This document shows, in pieces, positions 4,908 to 28,331 of a DNA stretch of 28,966 bases (positions within the stretch are counted from its first letter, which is position 1; the number at the start of each line of letters is the position of its first letter). The notes beneath the pieces are model-generated. The model made no database searches. It was given only the letters and a program-made list of their open reading frames with translations, and had not been told where the DNA came from. This DNA comes from a virus (Duplodnaviria > Caudoviricetes): positions 1 to 28,966 of the IMG/VR virus record IMGVR_UViG_3300037722_000810; one strand, 5' to 3'. The translations under genes and the position numbers were made by a program.

Positions 4908-5561
4908 GTGAACGACTTGAAGGCGGTATCCGGAGAACTGACGGCGGTGGTGCACGTGACCCGCAAGGGAACGGGCAAGACCGATACGTTTCACCTGGTC
5001 GGGCACAGCGACCCCGGGAAACTCGCCGCGCTGGTCGCGCAGGCGCGCAGGAACCGCGTGCACGGCGCGTCTGGCGGCCTGGTCGGCCTGCGCGCGCGCC
5101 TCGCGAACTTCGTGCTCGAGCTGTTCGAGCCCTGGTATGCGGCGCTCACGCGCTACATGGCCTACGTCGGGATGCTGCTGCGCGCGGTGACGCACAGCAC
5201 GGCCTCGCGCGACGCCGCGACGAATGCGGTGGTCGATCAACTCGATGGCGCCGGGAGCAAGCTGTGCTTTCGCATCTCCGCGGCTGGGGCGATTGCCGCG
5301 ACGCTGACGTGCGCGACGCCCGCATTCGGCGCATCATCGGCAGGCACGGCAACGGCGGGCGCGATTGCGAGCGACACGAACGCGGCCGGCAATGCCAGCC
5401 CGGTATCGCACGCGACATTGCAGACCAGCGGCGACGTGGTGGCGATCACCTGCCAGGTGGCGGCGAGCGGTAGCGACATCGACATGAGCAACGGGCTGAC
5501 GGTCGCCTCCGGCGATACGGTCTCCTGCTCAAGCCTGACCTATACCGCGCTGTCGGCCTGA
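4908..5561 (+). CDS. Putative virion structural/accessory protein (Ala/Ser/Thr-rich beta domain after an N-terminal leader)
   Basis: GGAGG RBS with GTG start. The C-terminal ~125 aa (THSTASRDAATNAVVD...GDTVSCSSLTYT) resemble small phage fibre/decoration-type proteins. Confidence 0.7.
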   Translation: MNDLKAVSGELTAVVHVTRKGTGKTDTFHLVGHSDPGKLAALVAQARRNRVHGASGGLVGLRARLANFVLELFEPWYAALTRYMAYVGMLLRAVTHSTASRDAATNAVVDQLDGAGSKLCFRISAAGAIAATLTCATPAFGASSAGTATAGAIASDTNAAGNASPVSHATLQTSGDVVAITCQVAASGSDIDMSNGLTVASGDTVSCSSLTYTALSA

Positions 5562-5911
5562 TGCTCTGGCGCATCTACTACGCCGACGGATCGACATTTG
5601 ACGCTGGCAATCCCGGCGACGCTCCGAAAACTGGCGTTATCTGCATCAAGCAGGCGAACAAGATGCACGGCTGGACGATCACGGCGATGAAAGACTTCTA
5701 CCTTCGGCGCCACGAGGCATGGTGGGGCGCCGATGCGCCGGGCTTCTGGCAGTTCATGTTCGCGCCCGGCGCGAAGGTCGTCCTCTTCGGCGTGAGCGCG
5801 CCTGACGAGGTGTTTCACAGGGTCATGAGCAGGGCGATCAACGATCCCGACTTCGGAGGCAAGTCGGCGAAGAGCCCGCTCGATTTCGGCGAGGAGCGGC
5901 AGTGGGCTTGA
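5561..5911 (+). CDS. Hypothetical protein (116 aa, aromatic-rich)
   Basis: TGATG coupling to the previous gene. Protein-like composition (WRIYYADGSTF). Confidence 0.7.
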   Translation: MLWRIYYADGSTFDAGNPGDAPKTGVICIKQANKMHGWTITAMKDFYLRRHEAWWGADAPGFWQFMFAPGAKVVLFGVSAPDEVFHRVMSRAINDPDFGGKSAKSPLDFGEERQWA

Positions 5912-7176
5912 AGCGGCGCTTTCTCGACTCGGGGTTTCATCAGTGGCTGCTCGCGTGGAAGCCGATCCCGCTGTGCTGGTTTTTCCGGCGCATGGGCTGG
6001 CCGATCCCGCGCTACCTGATCGGTCATGACATCTTTACCCCGGCGCAGGACAATTTCCGATTCTATGAGGAGGGTAGCGAGGATGGCTCCTCGCCAATCG
6101 ACGCCGAGAACACGAGCATCAGCCGCGCGGTCAATGCGGACTCCGACCTGCATTTGCGGCTGCTCATCCAGGCGACGAACACCGCGCCCGGAGCGTCGAC
6201 CGACGATTACCAGCTCCAGTATTCGAAGAACAGCGGCACGTTCACCAATATCACGGCGTCGTCAGCGGACGTTCAAGGGTACGCTTCGGCGGGCCTGACC
6301 GATGGCTCGGCGACCACGAACCGCGCGACGAACGGCATCAGTGACGGCACCGGGTCGTTCGTGGCCGGCGAGCAGGCGGAGAGCGGGCTTGTCACCGACC
6401 ATCTGCTCACTGGCTCGAACTTCACCGAGCACGTGTTTGCGCTGCGGCTGCTCTTCGCTGATCTCGCGAACGCGGACACCATTGACTTCCGCCTGCTCGT
6501 CAATGGCGGGACGATGGTTTACAACGTCACGCCGCAGATCACGGTCAGCCAGACCAATCCGTCGCTCGACGACGCCTCGATGGCGGACGCGGATCGCAAC
6601 TGGGATACTCCGTCGCAGGACATCGCGCTCACTTTCAGCGAGGCGGTGGACATCACGCCGACGCCAGGTGTGGGCGACACCATCGCCGGGCTGACGGCGA
6701 AGGTGAACGGCGGCGCGGCGCAGGCTCTGACCTACGTTTCCGGCAATGCCTCGGCGAGCTGGAAGGTGCGCCGCGCCGAGTTGATCCAGCAGGACGACAG
6801 CGTGACCGTGACATATGCGATGGCGACCGGCGACATCCTCGCCGTCGACGACAACGCTGAGGTGAAGAACGCCACCGACCTCGCGGTGACGAACAACCTC
6901 ACCAAGCGCGTGCGCGAGACGATCAAGGATAAGAATAATGCCATCGTCGCAAGCGAGTCGATGAGCTACGGCATCCATGAGTTCGATTCCGGCAATCCTG
7001 CGAACGCCAACTGGATGAGTCGCTCCACCAAGGGGAGCTCGAGCACCGATGCGAGCGGCGTATTTGATGTGCAGTACACGGGCGCGTCGGCTGTCGGCGC
7101 GACGGTCTATCTGGTGGTCGAACGCACGGCGCCAACTCCGGATGAGACGGCGCTGGCGAGAGTGGCGGTGCAGTAG
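5902..7176 (+). CDS. Putative virion surface protein with Ig-like/SwmB-like domain
   Basis: GAGGAG RBS before GTG. S/T/D/N-rich beta composition. Segment ~6620-6900 (LTFSEAVD...KVNGG...DSVTVTY...VTNN) matches the SwmB-type repeat pattern by eye. Confidence 0.7.
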   Translation: MGLKRRFLDSGFHQWLLAWKPIPLCWFFRRMGWPIPRYLIGHDIFTPAQDNFRFYEEGSEDGSSPIDAENTSISRAVNADSDLHLRLLIQATNTAPGASTDDYQLQYSKNSGTFTNITASSADVQGYASAGLTDGSATTNRATNGISDGTGSFVAGEQAESGLVTDHLLTGSNFTEHVFALRLLFADLANADTIDFRLLVNGGTMVYNVTPQITVSQTNPSLDDASMADADRNWDTPSQDIALTFSEAVDITPTPGVGDTIAGLTAKVNGGAAQALTYVSGNASASWKVRRAELIQQDDSVTVTYAMATGDILAVDDNAEVKNATDLAVTNNLTKRVRETIKDKNNAIVASESMSYGIHEFDSGNPANANWMSRSTKGSSSTDASGVFDVQYTGASAVGATVYLVVERTAPTPDETALARVAVQ

Positions 7177-8135
7177 TGGCGGTCTACACCAACGATCCGG
7201 CGAGAAATGCCGGCGCTGTCAGCAGCCACGATCCGACAGCAGATCAGGGAGGCGGAGGTCCGGTAACGCACGCGACTAGCGGGGCGCTCGCCGGGGCCGC
7301 TTCCGTCATTGCTGGTAGCGCATCGAGCGCGACCACGCGACCGTCGTCCGGGGCGCTGACAGGGCCCGGCTCCACGATTGCAGGAACCGCGGCGCGCACC
7401 AGAGCGCACGCGACAACCGGAGCCCTCGCCGGGCAAACGGCCACCGTAGCAGGCACCGCCGCCCGCACGCGCGCGCACGCCACGGACGGGGCGCTCGCCG
7501 GGGCCGGGGCAGAGGTAGCCGGAACCGCCGCGCGGGAAGGCGCGCCTGTTACCCACGCGACGACCGGAGTTCTGGATGGTCCGGGAAGTGTACTCATTGG
7601 CACTGCAGCACGGGAGCGTTTGCATCCGGCAATCGGCACGCTGGCCGGGCAGGGTTCGGCAATAGCTGGCACGGCAGCGCGGACGCGACAGCATTTGACT
7701 GCTGGCGAACTGATCGCACAGGGCTCGATCATCGTCGGCTCTGCCGCCCGCGTCGGCCCTCCGGTATCGCATGCCACCTCTGGCGCGCTGGTGGCTGCGG
7801 GGGCGACCCTCGAAGGGGCTGGAAATATCGGCAGCCAGTCGGTGCCGGCGTATCCGGGCGCCGGCACCAACTTGCTTCTGGCGTTGATGCTGTCGATGCC
7901 CAAGCACGAGCCGAAGAAGCTGAAAAAAGGCAAGAAACGCCGCCGCCGCGAGGACGAAGAAGAGGAAATCTCGCCAACCTTGCGCCTGCGCTACGCCGAG
8001 GCGGCTCTCGAGGCCGAGGTGCTCGCCTGCGATGCGGCGCTGGCCCGGGACGAGATCGCGAAGGCCGAACACGCCGCGCACGAGCTGCGGGTACGCCGCA
8101 AGCGCAACGCCGCCGCGATGATGGTGTGCGGTTGA
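7176..8135 (+). CDS. Repeat-containing putative fibre protein with a charged helical C-terminus
   Basis: TAGTG coupling. Eight 23-26 aa repeats, then a KKLKKGKKRRRREDEEEE charge block and a helical tail. Confidence 0.7.
   Translation: MAVYTNDPARNAGAVSSHDPTADQGGGGPVTHATSGALAGAASVIAGSASSATTRPSSGALTGPGSTIAGTAARTRAHATTGALAGQTATVAGTAARTRAHATDGALAGAGAEVAGTAAREGAPVTHATTGVLDGPGSVLIGTAARERLHPAIGTLAGQGSAIAGTAARTRQHLTAGELIAQGSIIVGSAARVGPPVSHATSGALVAAGATLEGAGNIGSQSVPAYPGAGTNLLLALMLSMPKHEPKKLKKGKKRRRREDEEEEISPTLRLRYAEAALEAEVLACDAALARDEIAKAEHAAHELRVRRKRNAAAMMVCG
7266..7826 (+). repeat. Eight tandem 23-26 aa repeats (consensus xHATxGALxGxGxxIAGTAARxR)
   Basis: Examples: AHATTGALAGQTATVAGTAARTR, AHATDGALAGAGAEVAGTAAREG, THATTGVLDGPGSVLIGTAARER. 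Confidence 0.9.
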
Positions 8136-23963: not shown

Positions 23964-23992
23964 AGCGTAGCAGATAAGGAAAACTCAATGAA
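23964..23992 (-). promoter_or_regulatory. Candidate sigma70 promoter for the methyltransferase moron
   Basis: On -: TTCATT, 17-nt spacer, TACGCT with an extended TGn motif. About 30 nt upstream of the ATG. Confidence 0.45.
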
Positions 23993-24506
23993 ACCCTCCC
24001 ACCGCATGCTCACCGGCGAGATCGGCTGGGCGTTCGTCGCGCTGTCCTTCGCCTGGTCCGGGATGGGCGGCTGGCCGCTCGAGCCGAGTTACCTGAACCG
24101 CGCGCTCGAGCGCACCGGGGCGACGATGCTGTGGGCGGTCGCGATCGGGATCCCGGCGCTCGTGCTGCTCGTGGTCAGCATGCGCGAGCACTGGGCGATC
24201 GCGCATCCGCCGGCGGATCCGGCGAAGCGCTGGTCGATCGTCGAGATCGAGCGCTCGGTGCGGATCCGGGCGTGGGTGTGTCTCGCGATGTCGGTGTCCT
24301 GGGCCTACATGTTCAAGGTGATGCTGCAGCTCTCGGCGCTGCGGGAGACGATGAACGGGGTGTTCGAGGGGGTACGCGCGAACGCGATCATGCCGATCGC
24401 GTTCTTCGGGTGCCTGTGCATGTTCTGGTCGTGGCTCGAAAACCGGAGGGTCCAGCGCGATGTCCGCAACAAGACGGGTGTGTTCCCCGCGTATCCGGCT
24501 CGTTAG
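23988..24506 (+). CDS. Multi-pass membrane protein (172 aa, ~4 TM), holin/antiholin candidate
   Basis: TAAGGA RBS and ATG 23988 (MKPSHRM...). Four hydrophobic segments and a basic C-terminus. First gene of the lysis cassette. Confidence 0.65.
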   Translation: MKPSHRMLTGEIGWAFVALSFAWSGMGGWPLEPSYLNRALERTGATMLWAVAIGIPALVLLVVSMREHWAIAHPPADPAKRWSIVEIERSVRIRAWVCLAMSVSWAYMFKVMLQLSALRETMNGVFEGVRANAIMPIAFFGCLCMFWSWLENRRVQRDVRNKTGVFPAYPAR

Positions 24507-24939
24507 GACCGTGCTGCTCGCGGTCACGCCGCCGCTCGCGATCGCCGCGGAGCAGACGATGGCGGCCGCGCGCGCGGCCTCGCCGCTCGAGGCGATCTCG
24601 CTCCTCACCTGGTCCTTCATCGTGGTCTTCACGCTGATCGGCTGGGCGGTGGCCGACGTGGACCGGATCGCGGAGCTGTGGAACGTGGGCGACGGCACCA
24701 AGTACCAGCAGGTCCTCGCGCGCCTGAAACTCCTGAAGACGATCCTCGGGTCGCTCGCCGCCGGCGTCTTCACGTATTTTCTCGGCAAGATCGCGCCCGC
24801 GTTCCTCATCGGCGCGATGGGCCTGAAGTTCGAGAGCGGCCAGCCGCCCGAGCTGCACGAGTTCCTGCTGCTGATGCTGTGCGCCGGCGCCGGCTGGCTC
24901 GGGTCGCGCTGGTTCGAGCGCGTGTTCGGCGCGAGGTAG
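24460..24939 (+). CDS. Membrane protein, holin candidate (signal-like N-terminus plus ~3 TM)
   Basis: GGAGG RBS, hydrophobic segments, AGAGWLGSRWFER C-terminus. Upstream of the endolysin. Confidence 0.65.
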   Translation: MSATRRVCSPRIRLVRTVLLAVTPPLAIAAEQTMAAARAASPLEAISLLTWSFIVVFTLIGWAVADVDRIAELWNVGDGTKYQQVLARLKLLKTILGSLAAGVFTYFLGKIAPAFLIGAMGLKFESGQPPELHEFLLLMLCAGAGWLGSRWFERVFGAR

Positions 24940-24942
24940 GCC

Positions 24943-25332
24943 ATGTGGAGGCCGGATCTCGACGACCTGGTGCCGCCGGCCAGGTGGCCGGAGCTCACCC
25001 TGCGCCAGTACATCGTGATCGGGATCCTGATGATCGCGCTCTCGGTGGTCGCGGCCGGCGCGTGGGCGCAGGGGCTGGGGTTCAGCGACGCGGAGTGCAA
25101 GGCGCTCGGGCACTTCGCCCGCACCTCGGCCGAGATCCGCGACCTCGAGGCGAAGCTCGAAAAGCACGTCGCCCTGGTGCGCCGGCGCGTGGCCGAGGAC
25201 GGGATGCGGCTCTCGCCGCTCCTCGAGCGCGAGCTGCGCCGCGTCTACGCCGAAGGGCTCGAGCCGGACAGGGCCGAGATCTCGGCGCACACGCGCTGCA
25301 TGACGGGCGAGATTTTGCGGAGGGAGGGGTGA
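24943..25332 (+). CDS. Hypothetical exported/membrane-anchored protein (129 aa)
   Basis: GAGGT RBS. One hydrophobic helix ending in AWA|Q, then a helical domain with two Cys. Confidence 0.65.
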   Translation: MWRPDLDDLVPPARWPELTLRQYIVIGILMIALSVVAAGAWAQGLGFSDAECKALGHFARTSAEIRDLEAKLEKHVALVRRRVAEDGMRLSPLLERELRRVYAEGLEPDRAEISAHTRCMTGEILRREG

Positions 25333-26405
25333 TGATCACGCTGTCCGACTATTTCATGGGGCGCGACCGCTCGCACCCCGAGGACTGCACCGACGAGATC
25401 CGCGGCAACGCGGCGCTGACGGTGGCGCGGGTGAACCTGCTGCTCGCCGATGCCGAGGAGGAGCTCGTCGCGCCCGGCATCGACGAGGTGACGGGCACGC
25501 ACGTGGCGAGCGGCTGGCGGCCGCGCGGGATCAACGCCCGCACGCAGAACGCAGCGACGGGCTCGAAGCACCTCACCGCGCGGGCCTGCGACCTGCAGGA
25601 CACGCCGGACCGCAAGTTCGCGCGCTGGTGCCTGCGCAATCTGGGCGCGCTCGAGCGCATCGGGTTGTGGATGGAGGATCCGCAGTGGACGCCGAGTTGG
25701 GTCCACCTGCAGACGGTGCCGCCCGGATCCGGCCGGCGCGTGTACCGGCCGAGCGCCGCGGAGGCGCTGGTGGCCAAGCTGCCGGAGCAGCTCGAGCCGC
25801 CGGCGGCCACGCAGGGCGGCTTCGGCATGGTGCACGCGATCGCCGCGGTGGCGATCGTGGGCGCGCTCACCGCGCTCGCCCTCATGGCGAAGAACTACAT
25901 CGAGGGGGTGCGCGAGGCCGGCGTCGACGCCGGCCGGCGCGCGGCGCTCCTCGAGGTGGCGCAGCGGGACAACACGCAGCTCGCGGCCGTGCAAAAGCGC
26001 GTGCTCGAGCTGCAGGCCGAACTCGCCGAGCGCGAGCAGCGGCACCGGGATGAAGTGGCCAGGATCGACCAGGAGGGCACCGATGAACTCAGGAAGGTGG
26101 AGCAGGAACGCGACGCTGCTCGGCGGCGCGCTACTCAGTACGCTGGCCGGCTGCGCGACCCCGGAGCCCGCCCGGCCGACGGCTGCGGCGCCGGCGATCG
26201 TGGAGACGGCGCGGCCGCGGCTGTCGCCGGTGCCGGCGTGGATCCTGGAGAAGCCCGGGCGCCGGGAGGCGAACTTTCGGCAGAGGCTGGAGGATTTCTT
26301 CGCGCCGAAGCCGACCGCGCCGACGAAGTAGCGCACGAGCACAACGCGCTGGCGGTGCGGCTCGAGGCGTGCCAGCAGATCGCGATCGACGATCGCAAGA
26401 ACTGA
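25332..26405 (+). CDS. Fused peptidase M15-family endolysin + inner-membrane spanin (Rz-like), 357 aa
   Basis: GGGAGG RBS and TGATG start. Zn-peptidase motifs SGWR, SKH..A.D and WVH. With no stop, a TM helix follows, then a coiled coil, RLRDP and ADRADE...LEACQ typical of i-spanins. Confidence 0.85.
   Translation: MITLSDYFMGRDRSHPEDCTDEIRGNAALTVARVNLLLADAEEELVAPGIDEVTGTHVASGWRPRGINARTQNAATGSKHLTARACDLQDTPDRKFARWCLRNLGALERIGLWMEDPQWTPSWVHLQTVPPGSGRRVYRPSAAEALVAKLPEQLEPPAATQGGFGMVHAIAAVAIVGALTALALMAKNYIEGVREAGVDAGRRAALLEVAQRDNTQLAAVQKRVLELQAELAEREQRHRDEVARIDQEGTDELRKVEQERDAARRRATQYAGRLRDPGARPADGCGAGDRGDGAAAAVAGAGVDPGEARAPGGELSAEAGGFLRAEADRADEVAHEHNALAVRLEACQQIAIDDRKN
26083..26331 (+). CDS. Outer-membrane spanin lipoprotein (Rz1-like), embedded in the +1 frame of Rz
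   Basis: AGGAGG RBS, ATG 26083, lipobox LAGC, Pro-rich mature part. Fully nested in the i-spanin region. Confidence 0.9.
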   Translation: MNSGRWSRNATLLGGALLSTLAGCATPEPARPTAAAPAIVETARPRLSPVPAWILEKPGRREANFRQRLEDFFAPKPTAPTK

Positions 26406-26862: not shown

Positions 26863-26907
26863 CTACGAACCAAGGGGTCGTGGGTTCAAATCCTGCCGGG
26901 CGCGCCA
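26863..26907 (+). other. attP: attP core: 3' half of tRNA-Arg(ACG), from anticodon loop to CCA
   Basis: CTACGAA-CCAAG-GGGTC-GTGGGTTCAAATCCTGC-CGGGCGC-GCCA. No D-arm or 5' acceptor strand upstream. Adjacent to the integrase 3' end. Confidence 0.92.
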
Positions 26908-26913
26908 CCTTCA

Positions 26914-26926
26914 AATCAACGACTTA
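26914..26926 (+). promoter_or_regulatory. IHF-binding site in attP
   Basis: AATCAACGACTTA is an exact WATCAANNNNTTR match. A 1-mismatch copy TTTCAACACGTTG lies at 26835-26847. Confidence 0.75.
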
Positions 26927-26940
26927 GGCCACTTTCCGGC

Positions 26941-28086
26941 CTAGGCCGTTTTCTTCTCCCCGGGGACTTCTCCGGGGACTCGCGACTGCCGGATGATCGC
27001 CGACAGAGGCACGTTCTGCGCGTGCCGCTCGTCGGTGATGAGCTCCAGCGCCTGCCGCAGTTCCACCACCTGGGCGACCGAGTAGTGCGCGGTCATGCCC
27101 TTCCGAACGTGCCACAACACGTCGGCGATCGTCTCCTCCCGCACGCCCGCCTCCCGCAGCCGCATGCCCACGGTGTGCCGGATGTCGTGCACCCGGAACC
27201 CCTGCAGACCGCACCGCGCCCGCCACTTCTGCCAGGCGGTGTTGTTCATCGTCTCGACCGGCCTGTATTTCGGCTTGCGGCCGGCCTTGCGGATCTGCGA
27301 GTAGACGAAGACGAACTCCTCGTGCTGCCCGCGGACCGATTCGATGATCGACTGCGCCACCGTGTTGCACACCAGCACGCGATCGCGCTTCCTGCCCTTC
27401 ACCCACCGCCTGGGCACGACGAAGACCGAGAAGCCCAGATCCGGCAGCCGCACTTCCCAGGACCACCGCAGGTTGCATAGCGCCTCGTCGCGCGCGCCGG
27501 TGTTCAGGTCGAACAGCACCATGCGCCCGAGGTGCGCGGGGAGCTTCGCCAGGTGCTCGCGCTGATCGCGCCAGCTGATCTGCACCGGCTCCCTCGCATC
27601 GTCCTGCGGCAGGAACTGGATGAGCGGGGGCACACCCGGCAGCCACGGCTTCCCGTCCTCGCCGCGCCAGCTGCGTGCCGCGAGGTTGAGGATCCTGCGC
27701 ACGATGCCGAGCGCGAGGTTCACGGTCTTCGCCTTCGATCCGCCGGCGAGCCTCGCCTTCACGTAGGGCTTCAGCGTGCCGTCGTGCACCTGGTCGAGCT
27801 GCAGCTGCCCGATGAAGGGCATGGCCGTCTTGAGCAGGTGGATCTCGAGCTCGATCGAGAGCTTCGCGGAGTACTTCTCGACGTAGTGCGCCGCGGCCTG
27901 GTCGAACGTGGGGACGACGCCCGCGGCTCGGGCCCGGAGCGCGCCTATGCGCTCGAGGATCCAGCCCTCCGCCGCTTCAGGATCGCAGAAGCTGCGGCGT
28001 GGAAGTCGGTGACCACGGTAGACCTTGTCGACGTGCCAGCGGCCATCCTTGCCCGGGTAGATTCCCGGGATTCTTTTTCGGCCCAT
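26941..28086 (-). CDS. int: Tyrosine integrase
   Basis: TGAR, HDIRH, LWH and AHY catalytic pattern. SD AAAGGAG. Adjacent to attP. Confidence 0.95.
   Translation of the reverse strand: MGRKRIPGIYPGKDGRWHVDKVYRGHRLPRRSFCDPEAAEGWILERIGALRARAAGVVPTFDQAAAHYVEKYSAKLSIELEIHLLKTAMPFIGQLQLDQVHDGTLKPYVKARLAGGSKAKTVNLALGIVRRILNLAARSWRGEDGKPWLPGVPPLIQFLPQDDAREPVQISWRDQREHLAKLPAHLGRMVLFDLNTGARDEALCNLRWSWEVRLPDLGFSVFVVPRRWVKGRKRDRVLVCNTVAQSIIESVRGQHEEFVFVYSQIRKAGRKPKYRPVETMNNTAWQKWRARCGLQGFRVHDIRHTVGMRLREAGVREETIADVLWHVRKGMTAHYSVAQVVELRQALELITDERHAQNVPLSAIIRQSRVPGEVPGEKKTA
26961..26982. repeat. Integrase arm-type site pair, right arm (within the int 3' end)
   Basis: CGGGGACTT-ctc-CGGGGACTCG. Confidence 0.8.
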
Positions 28087-28331
28087 GTGCTATCTCCTTT
28101 CTCGCCGGGCCGACCGTTCCGCTGCGCGCGATACTCATCGAACGCCCGGTCCAGGTCAACCCGATCCCAGACCTTGCGCGTGCCGGCCGGCGTAGGAACC
28201 GGCAGCAAGGGCTTGATGTGCTTGTTGAAAGCCCGGCGGCGGAAGCCCAGGTAGGTGAGCGCCTCGGCGTAGCTGTAGGCCCGCTTCAGCGCCGGTGCAG
28301 ATGTGTGGACTGGGGTGAGGCGGGCGGGCAT
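27945..28331 (-). CDS. xis: Excisionase-like HTH protein
   Basis: YSYAEALTYLGFRRRAFNKHIKP...WDRVDLD winged-HTH pattern. Upstream of and overlapping int. Confidence 0.7.
   Translation of the reverse strand: MPARLTPVHTSAPALKRAYSYAEALTYLGFRRRAFNKHIKPLLPVPTPAGTRKVWDRVDLDRAFDEYRAQRNGRPGEKGDSTWAEKESRESTRARMAAGTSTRSTVVTDFHAAASAILKRRRAGSSSA

Follow-up and report, generated by a model that had tools for sequence, protein, structure and literature searches.

A phage gene joining an endolysin in frame to an Rz-type i-spanin at a prepilin-like junction

To our knowledge, all described Gram-negative lysis cassettes encode the endolysin and the spanin as separate proteins. In a virus record of the Caudoviricetes (IMG/VR IMGVR_UViG_3300037722_000810; the whole stretch of 28,966 nucleotides analysed here is called the window), both appear to be joined in a single gene, which raises the question of whether the gene is genuine and how an enzyme attached to a membrane-anchored spanin could be set free. 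The original prediction, based on the letters of the window, had proposed a type IV prepilin-like (class III) cleavage site at the junction, at which the host peptidase PilD would release the endolysin.

The record is estimated to be 64% complete and has a G+C content of 68%. Lambda-like terminase, portal, head and tail genes are followed by the lysis region, an att core and a tyrosine integrase gene on the opposite strand. The portal protein is long (671 aa), and open reading frames of 217, 424 and 319 residues at 4908-8135, between portal and head protease, are without Pfam or PHROG match. The features of the lysis region and its surroundings are as follows.

23988-24506, + strand: membrane protein encoded by the first gene of the presumed lysis cassette; kept in loci L001 and L012, no family match.
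24460-24939, + strand: multi-helix membrane protein, a holin candidate from position and hydropathy; also upstream of the fusion in L001 and L012, no family match.
24943-25332, + strand: protein with a single helix, membrane-bound or exported, whose gene immediately precedes the fusion gene; a related gene has the same place in L001, L012 and L018, no family match.
25332-26405, + strand: endolysin/i-spanin fusion gene, 357 aa (P0001); its ATG overlaps the stop of the preceding gene and has a strong ribosome-binding site.
25332-25790, + strand: endolysin domain of Peptidase M15 type (Zn, hedgehog/DD-peptidase fold), residues 1-153, from alignment, motifs and model.
25760-25772, + strand: GGAGG with an in-frame GTG at 25770 (Val147), a possible second start that would give a 17-residue leader; present in the window and L001.
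25791-25820, + strand: flexible linker ending in Q161-G162-G163, with the predicted cut after Gly163; low pLDDT at 159-163.
25821-25889, + strand: Phe164-Ala186, a pilin-like hydrophobic helix that anchors the i-spanin in the membrane, from hydropathy and model.
25890-26402, + strand: periplasmic coiled-coil domain of an Rz-type i-spanin.
26083-26331, + strand, +1 frame: embedded o-spanin, an Rz1-like lipoprotein of 82 aa with an L-A-G-C lipobox (Cys24) and AGGAGG before its ATG at 26083.
About 26863-26910: 3' half of a tRNA-like sequence (att core), between the lysis genes and integrase/excisionase.

The three membrane-protein genes at 23988-25332 precede M15 and amidase fusions alike (L001, L012) and are candidates for holin or regulator.

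Translation of 25332-26405 yields one frame of 357 aa with a single stop at 26403. The same protein is present in two sources, and its cluster comprises seven members, all full length. A contig from a different study (run X2) spans 25650-25856 with zero differences; in run X1 all 401 bases are covered without difference, but this run may be the source sample. Because the two sources and the run X2 contig agree, the in-frame junction is not an assembly error, and together with the fused relatives described below they also rule out a one-off decay. In this gene, then, the reading frame of an endolysin runs on into that of an Rz-type i-spanin, within which an o-spanin gene is embedded intact.

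Residues 1-153 are 54-65% identical to eight stand-alone proteins from viral contigs, all of which end 3-7 residues past residue 153. His80, Asp87 and His125 do not vary among the 10 sequences aligned, and the H-x6-D and W-x-H metal-ligand motifs are intact. The model of the domain (pLDDT 91) has its top Foldseek matches in 1lbu, ChiX (5opz) and hedgehog domains (best E 0.12, probability 0.92; none at E<=0.001), and an Atlas structure search matched M15 clusters, with a TM of 0.95 by target to one of them. The Pfam M15_3 match reached only E 0.06, and a PDB sequence search with the domain gave no match. From fold, motif and gene position we call the enzyme M15-type. It resembles the M15 endolysins ChiX and RB49 (L-Ala-D-Glu endopeptidases) in its intact metal-ligand motifs and, weakly, in its predicted fold; unlike these, it carries a C-terminal membrane anchor and a spanin, and relatives of the fusion have an unrelated Amidase_2 domain in its place. 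Hydropathy reveals no hydrophobic segment before residue 157, so the enzyme is without an N-terminal SAR-type signal-anchor.

In the second half of the protein, residues 168-341 match the Rz-like spanin family phrog_2466 (E 1.6e-6), homologues match PF03245, and the model consists of two long helices and a loop. A single membrane helix with a periplasmic coiled coil, and a nested lipoprotein gene with lipobox and ribosome-binding site, are what is expected of a two-component spanin. The nested o-spanin frame is also found in L001, L009, L012, L015 and L018, although the o-spanin had no match in the family databases searched. According to the accessible part of the SpaninDB article (PMC6139136), embedded spanins of the lambda Rz/Rz1 type share with our locus the membrane helix, the periplasmic coiled coil with PF03245/phrog_2466 similarity, the o-spanin lipoprotein nested in the +1 frame and the position at the end of the lysis cassette. 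Here, in contrast, a whole endolysin precedes the i-spanin in frame, and the anchor begins with a class III-like motif. The helix of embedded two-component spanins is N-terminal; in the translated fusion it starts at residue 164, and it would become N-terminal only after the predicted cut. In L001 (3400-5340) a different variant takes the place of the spanin's last 50 residues; next come genes which we take to be nuclease-like and then transposase-like.

At the junction itself, Gly163 is encoded at 25818-25820 and Phe164 at 25821-25823. The translation bears out the residues given in the original prediction: Q-3, G-1, F+1, His+5, VAIVG at +10 to +14, L16, A18, A20 and L21. The hydrophobic tract runs from +1 to +23, ends before Lys187 at +24 and is the sole hydrophobic segment of the 357-aa protein. 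Class III sites have a Gly at -1 followed at once by some 21-25 hydrophobic residues, as here, and in the six frames of the window this is the sole [QE]xG[FILV] site followed by a helix. In the spanin model, coil gives way to helix exactly at Phe164, right after Gly163, which is prepilin geometry. The likeness to the class III signal peptides of type IVa pilins and T2SS pseudopilins thus lies in the Gly before a hydrophobic tract of about 23 residues, in Q-3 and in F+1. Unlike these, the fusion has a folded 163-residue enzyme in place of a short basic leader, no basic residues at the site (net charge 0 at -8 to -2, as the original prediction had cautioned), His168 instead of Glu at +5, and a spanin coiled coil rather than a pilin head as its mature part. 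Scoring with prepilin models, which the original prediction had put forward as a check, went against it: neither Pfam N_methyl PF07963 nor TIGR02532 matched the junction, so that taken alone the window's junction is a weak match.

Protein searches recovered the fusion in 10 full-length clusters at 90% identity and in one partial protein. Two of the clusters carry the window's M15 type, three a Peptidase_M15_3 and five an Amidase_2 domain, with catalytic motifs intact in each type. The latter two types are 19-27% identical to the window's domain, and the fused spanins are 53-93% identical. A search for longer fusions, covering 395-2000 residues, found none. In three Peptidase_M15_3 proteins (P0005, P0172, P0174) the domain has an insertion of about 21 residues before the first metal ligand. 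In a tree of periplasmic parts (FastTree, 164 rows), 14 fused rows fall within a clade of 17 (support 99) together with three stand-alone spanins. The fused/unfused label needs three changes on this tree, and the endolysin types are interleaved (e.g. P0003 with M15 beside P0012 with amidase), from which it follows that the enzyme was exchanged repeatedly while the fusion persisted. Unfused arrangements also occur: in L009 an endolysin 55% identical to that of the window is followed by a separate spanin with HQRG↓F (the arrow marks the predicted cut), and in L018 one gene lies between an amidase and a spanin with PQRG↓F.

For the junction, 17 fused proteins gave 16 distinct sequences; P0014, which is related to the endolysin but has an unrelated tail, was not counted. 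G-1 and F+1 are present in all 16 and Q-3 in 14, in keeping with the expectation that the motif is kept in fused homologues, whereas positions -15 to -4 vary. Position -2 is Ala in 12, Gly in two, His in one and Arg in one; position +5 is His in 12 and Gln in four. V+4 (15/16), A+6 (15/16) and A+9 (16/16) are conserved like G-1 and F+1, so the count partly reflects relatedness, which alone can explain much of it. The most distant fused member, P0176, reads QAG↓FSLVQ, which is near a textbook prepilin.

A wider comparison came from spanins that stand alone. A profile from seven spanin parts recovered 743 representatives at 50% identity, and the best 150 of these 743, ranked with the motif-containing profile, were examined; most of them match the Rz family PF03245. 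P0007 was left out because it is fused, leaving 149 homologues without endolysin. Among these 149 of the best 150 of 743, 108 carry, ahead of the helix, a basic stretch whose last residue is Gly, with Q-3 in 80, R-2 in 90, F+1 in 50, I+1 in 22 and E+5 in 18 of the 108, and a leader of 5-6 residues in 70. The typical stand-alone leader is M-[KR]-Q-R-G↓F. A strict prepilin-like leader motif is present in 94 of the 149, against a mean of 6.1 and a maximum of 15 in 1000 shuffles. A Glu or Asp at +5 within a PilFind-type pattern occurs in 21 of the same 149; in P0072 the site reads QRG↓FSLIEL. N_methyl PF07963 is listed for seven of the best 150 homologues, once above the cut-off. The short basic leader and the occasional Glu5 of the stand-alone forms are further likenesses to class III signal peptides. 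Many site-bearing members, however, have Trp, Pro, Asp or Asn within +1 to +5, unlike pilins. No site is seen in 41 of the best-ranked 149, some of which are perhaps miscalled starts, and cutting is therefore not needed for spanin function in general.

With a profile lacking leader and helix, all 149 still pass (median 77.75 bits for motif-bearing and 78.4 bits for motif-less members), so the motif did not create the family; a pure profile artefact is not supported, though the list had been cut by a motif-bearing profile. Nor is Q-R-G a by-product of a ribosome-binding site: the codons in six loci are CAG-CGC/GCC/GGC/TTC-GGC-TTC, without GGAG. Nine leader strings (QRGF, QRGI, QRGV, RQRG, KQRG, RERG, ERGF, QAGF, RRGF) gave no hit by exact string search in the SpaninDB sequence table, which covers spanins of cultured phages. 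Four homologues (P0083, P0030, P0121, P0135) have N-terminal extensions of 60-70 residues ending at the Gly site; that of P0083 is a LuxR-type helix-turn-helix above its Pfam cut-off. These extensions may be further polyproteins or miscalled starts.

Because stand-alone spanins begin with a short, basic leader ending in Gly, the junction can be regarded as an inherited class III-like signal peptide. The net charge of the seven residues before the Gly is +1 or more in 98 of 104 stand-alone proteins versus -1 to +1 in 11 fused ones, and Arg-2 is kept in one of the 11 fused proteins and lost in ten, which are related and not independent sequences. A folded cytoplasmic domain makes a positive-inside signal unnecessary, and Q-x-G↓F stays. 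We read the loss of the basic residues with retention of Q-x-G↓F as probable selection on the cut site, the alternative being decay of an unused site; on the preferred reading, the part of the leader needed for topology would have been lost on fusion and the part needed for cutting kept.

A free endolysin could in principle arise without proteolysis. A programmed frameshift is ruled out: the window, L001 and L019 have no slippery heptamer or homopolymer run, and after the junction the next stops in the other frames lie as far away as 26051 and 26329. Since no frame has a stop close to the junction and a slippery site is absent, the endolysin can only be released by proteolysis.

We consider it rather probable that a host prepilin peptidase (PilD/GspO) cuts the fusion after Gly163 and that ordinary holin-endolysin-spanin lysis follows. 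The fusion would be made as one protein and inserted with the endolysin on the cytoplasmic side, where a PilD/GspO-type peptidase would treat the enzyme as an oversized leader. Cutting after Gly163 would yield a soluble cytoplasmic endolysin, which would exit through the holin lesions, and a spanin anchored by the helix from Phe164, which would pair with the embedded o-spanin as lambda Rz does with Rz1. The site would have been inherited from stand-alone spanins, and its cleavability likely lets upstream genes fuse repeatedly. Published work agrees with several of these steps: the Gly is critical for prepilin processing and Glu5 dispensable for it, and many prepilin peptidases are promiscuous, working without any further component of the pilus (PMC4471445). 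In the accessible parts of the sources, leader length is variable and the cut lies on the cytoplasmic side (PMC4471445, PMC10191384), while published leaders have 6-26 residues and are hydrophilic (PMC4471445). No paper describing a folded domain as prepilin leader was found in the searched literature.

Four other explanations have to be weighed. It is unlikely that the protein is never cut, with the helix as a plain anchor and the tethered endolysin reaching the wall via large holin lesions or membrane collapse. The fused forms are indeed without basic leader, no prepilin model matches the window's junction, and the 41 site-less members among the best-ranked 149 (best 150 of 743) are anchored all the same. 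However, the linker on the cytoplasmic side has only about 10 residues, which would give poor reach for the wall, and the Gly and Q-3 are kept across stand-alone spanins less than 50% identical while the helix varies; a mere anchor needs neither.

Somewhat less likely again is release by another host protease, either intramembrane or a cytoplasmic one cutting the linker, with the pilin-like motif as an inherited relic. Against it, positions -15 to -4 have no common motif across the three endolysin types; only Q-x-G↓F is common to them, and the near-textbook site of P0176, the most distant fused member, also counts against it. What this explanation accounts for is that release seems needed, that the linker is modelled as disordered and that the loss of Arg-2 in 10 of 11 fused proteins could be the decay of a disused site.

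We give a rather small chance to pilin mimicry, in which the processed helix, beyond its part in freeing the endolysin, would engage or jam the machinery of type IV pili or the T2SS (by removing the receptor, serving as a decoy for the peptidase or feeding the pilus state into lysis timing). Glu5 is needed for filament assembly and not for processing (PMC4471445), and Glu or Asp at +5 is kept in 21 family members (best 150 of 743). Stand-alone spanins gain nothing obvious from shedding five residues, and prophages do encode pilin mimics according to the accessible part of PMC12952977. Most family members are nevertheless without Glu5, the window's clade has His or Gln at this position, and a late lysis gene would be badly placed for superinfection exclusion. 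The more specific idea of the original prediction, that lysis is tied to the pilus or T2SS state of the host, is possible but finds no support; inheritance of a cleavable leader that simply renders the fusion workable accounts for the data without regulation.

The least probable, and in our view very doubtful, explanation is that translation of the working spanin begins internally, the fusion being mere read-through that followed stop-codon loss: in the window and L001, GTG 25770 has a GGAGG (-9.5 kcal/mol, the main start having -11.9), a GTG lies at +4 in all three fused loci with DNA, and P0168, clustered with fused P0004, ends at the junction, but the amidase fusion L019 has no comparable GGAGG/GTG site, the +3/+4 starts in L001 and L019 have weak or no ribosome-binding sites (-2.6 to -3.6), Met166 (ATG 25827) is Leu, Val or Thr in homologues (TTG in L001, ACC in L019), and in any case the endolysin stays fused and a Val147 start still gives a leader ending at Gly163. 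The GGAGG and GTG arose through a Pro-to-Glu change relative to unfused endolysins, and the start could make extra spanin with a 17-residue leader. P0168 is a stand-alone endolysin in the 90% cluster of P0004 and ends four residues past the point from which P0004 runs on into Q-A-G↓F; the split and the fused form may exist side by side here, or an assembly artefact may be present. Motif conservation and a start at ATG 25827 had both been named in the original prediction as points on which cleavage might fail, and both favoured it.

Which host would supply the peptidase is suggested only by the integration region. Sequence from Cupriavidus and Ralstonia is 93-94% similar to the att core, and the nearest match of the integrase is that of an Achromobacter phage (39.5%); this only suggests a betaproteobacterium. 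The layout of 26863-28331 (att core plus integrase/excisionase) is that of an excised phage attP, and 44 bases of the att core also adjoin integrases in two unrelated viral contigs (L033, L034). The spanin had no match in cultured phages or in the species genomes searched. In the four phage records G000-G003 (G000 64% complete, one 99% complete) no A24 prepilin peptidase is encoded; the control for this search was positive in 12 of 14 control genomes.

The arrangement can be set against other phage proteins. SAR endolysins such as R21 of phage 21 are likewise membrane-tethered and need host export machinery before release, but their anchor is N-terminal and the enzyme periplasmic and released without cleavage (accessible part of PMC6139136); in the fusion the anchor follows the enzyme, which is predicted to lie on the cytoplasmic side and to be released by proteolysis. 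The prophage pilin mimics P-FimU and truncated P-PilA are alike in that a phage protein bears a pilin-type N-terminus and depends on the pilus biogenesis of the host; these, however, are defence proteins entering the pilus, and spanin, prepilin and PilD are absent from the main text (PMC12952977). By string search, the text of PMC6139136 does not contain 'pilin' and uses 'fused' for membranes only. PMC7504290 contains both 'spanin' and 'prepilin peptidase', and in the available portion of bioRxiv 10.1101/2025.11.12.688109 'endolysin-spanin' refers to pathways, not fusions. In the literature searched (subscription journals and preprint supplements being outside its reach), no report of endolysin-spanin fusions or of spanins with prepilin leaders was found.

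Our analysis therefore describes a real, conserved lysis-gene architecture built of known parts and apparently undescribed, for which the proposed mechanism of processing is well supported. Beyond the fusion, we hold as a tentative proposal, somewhat short of an even chance, that there is an unrecognised and widespread class of i-spanins with class III signal peptides matured by host prepilin peptidase, of which one clade has become a polyprotein with interchangeable endolysins (and a sister lineage one with a LuxR-type DNA-binding domain), and that lysis requires, and may be gated by, the peptidase.

Pilins and pseudopilins are the known substrates of prepilin peptidases in bacteria. Should the cut prove real, the fusion would be a phage lysis polyprotein matured by a host protease and would add a non-pilin class to the substrates of PilD, which would be shown able to remove a folded enzyme as leader; loss of pilD would then be predicted to block lysis as well as piliation. 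The fusion would also show directly which part of a prepilin leader is read by the peptidase. Should the fused forms be special, the presence of the leader in about two thirds of the top 149 homologues (best 150 of 743) still raises the question of why a spanin anchor should be processed.
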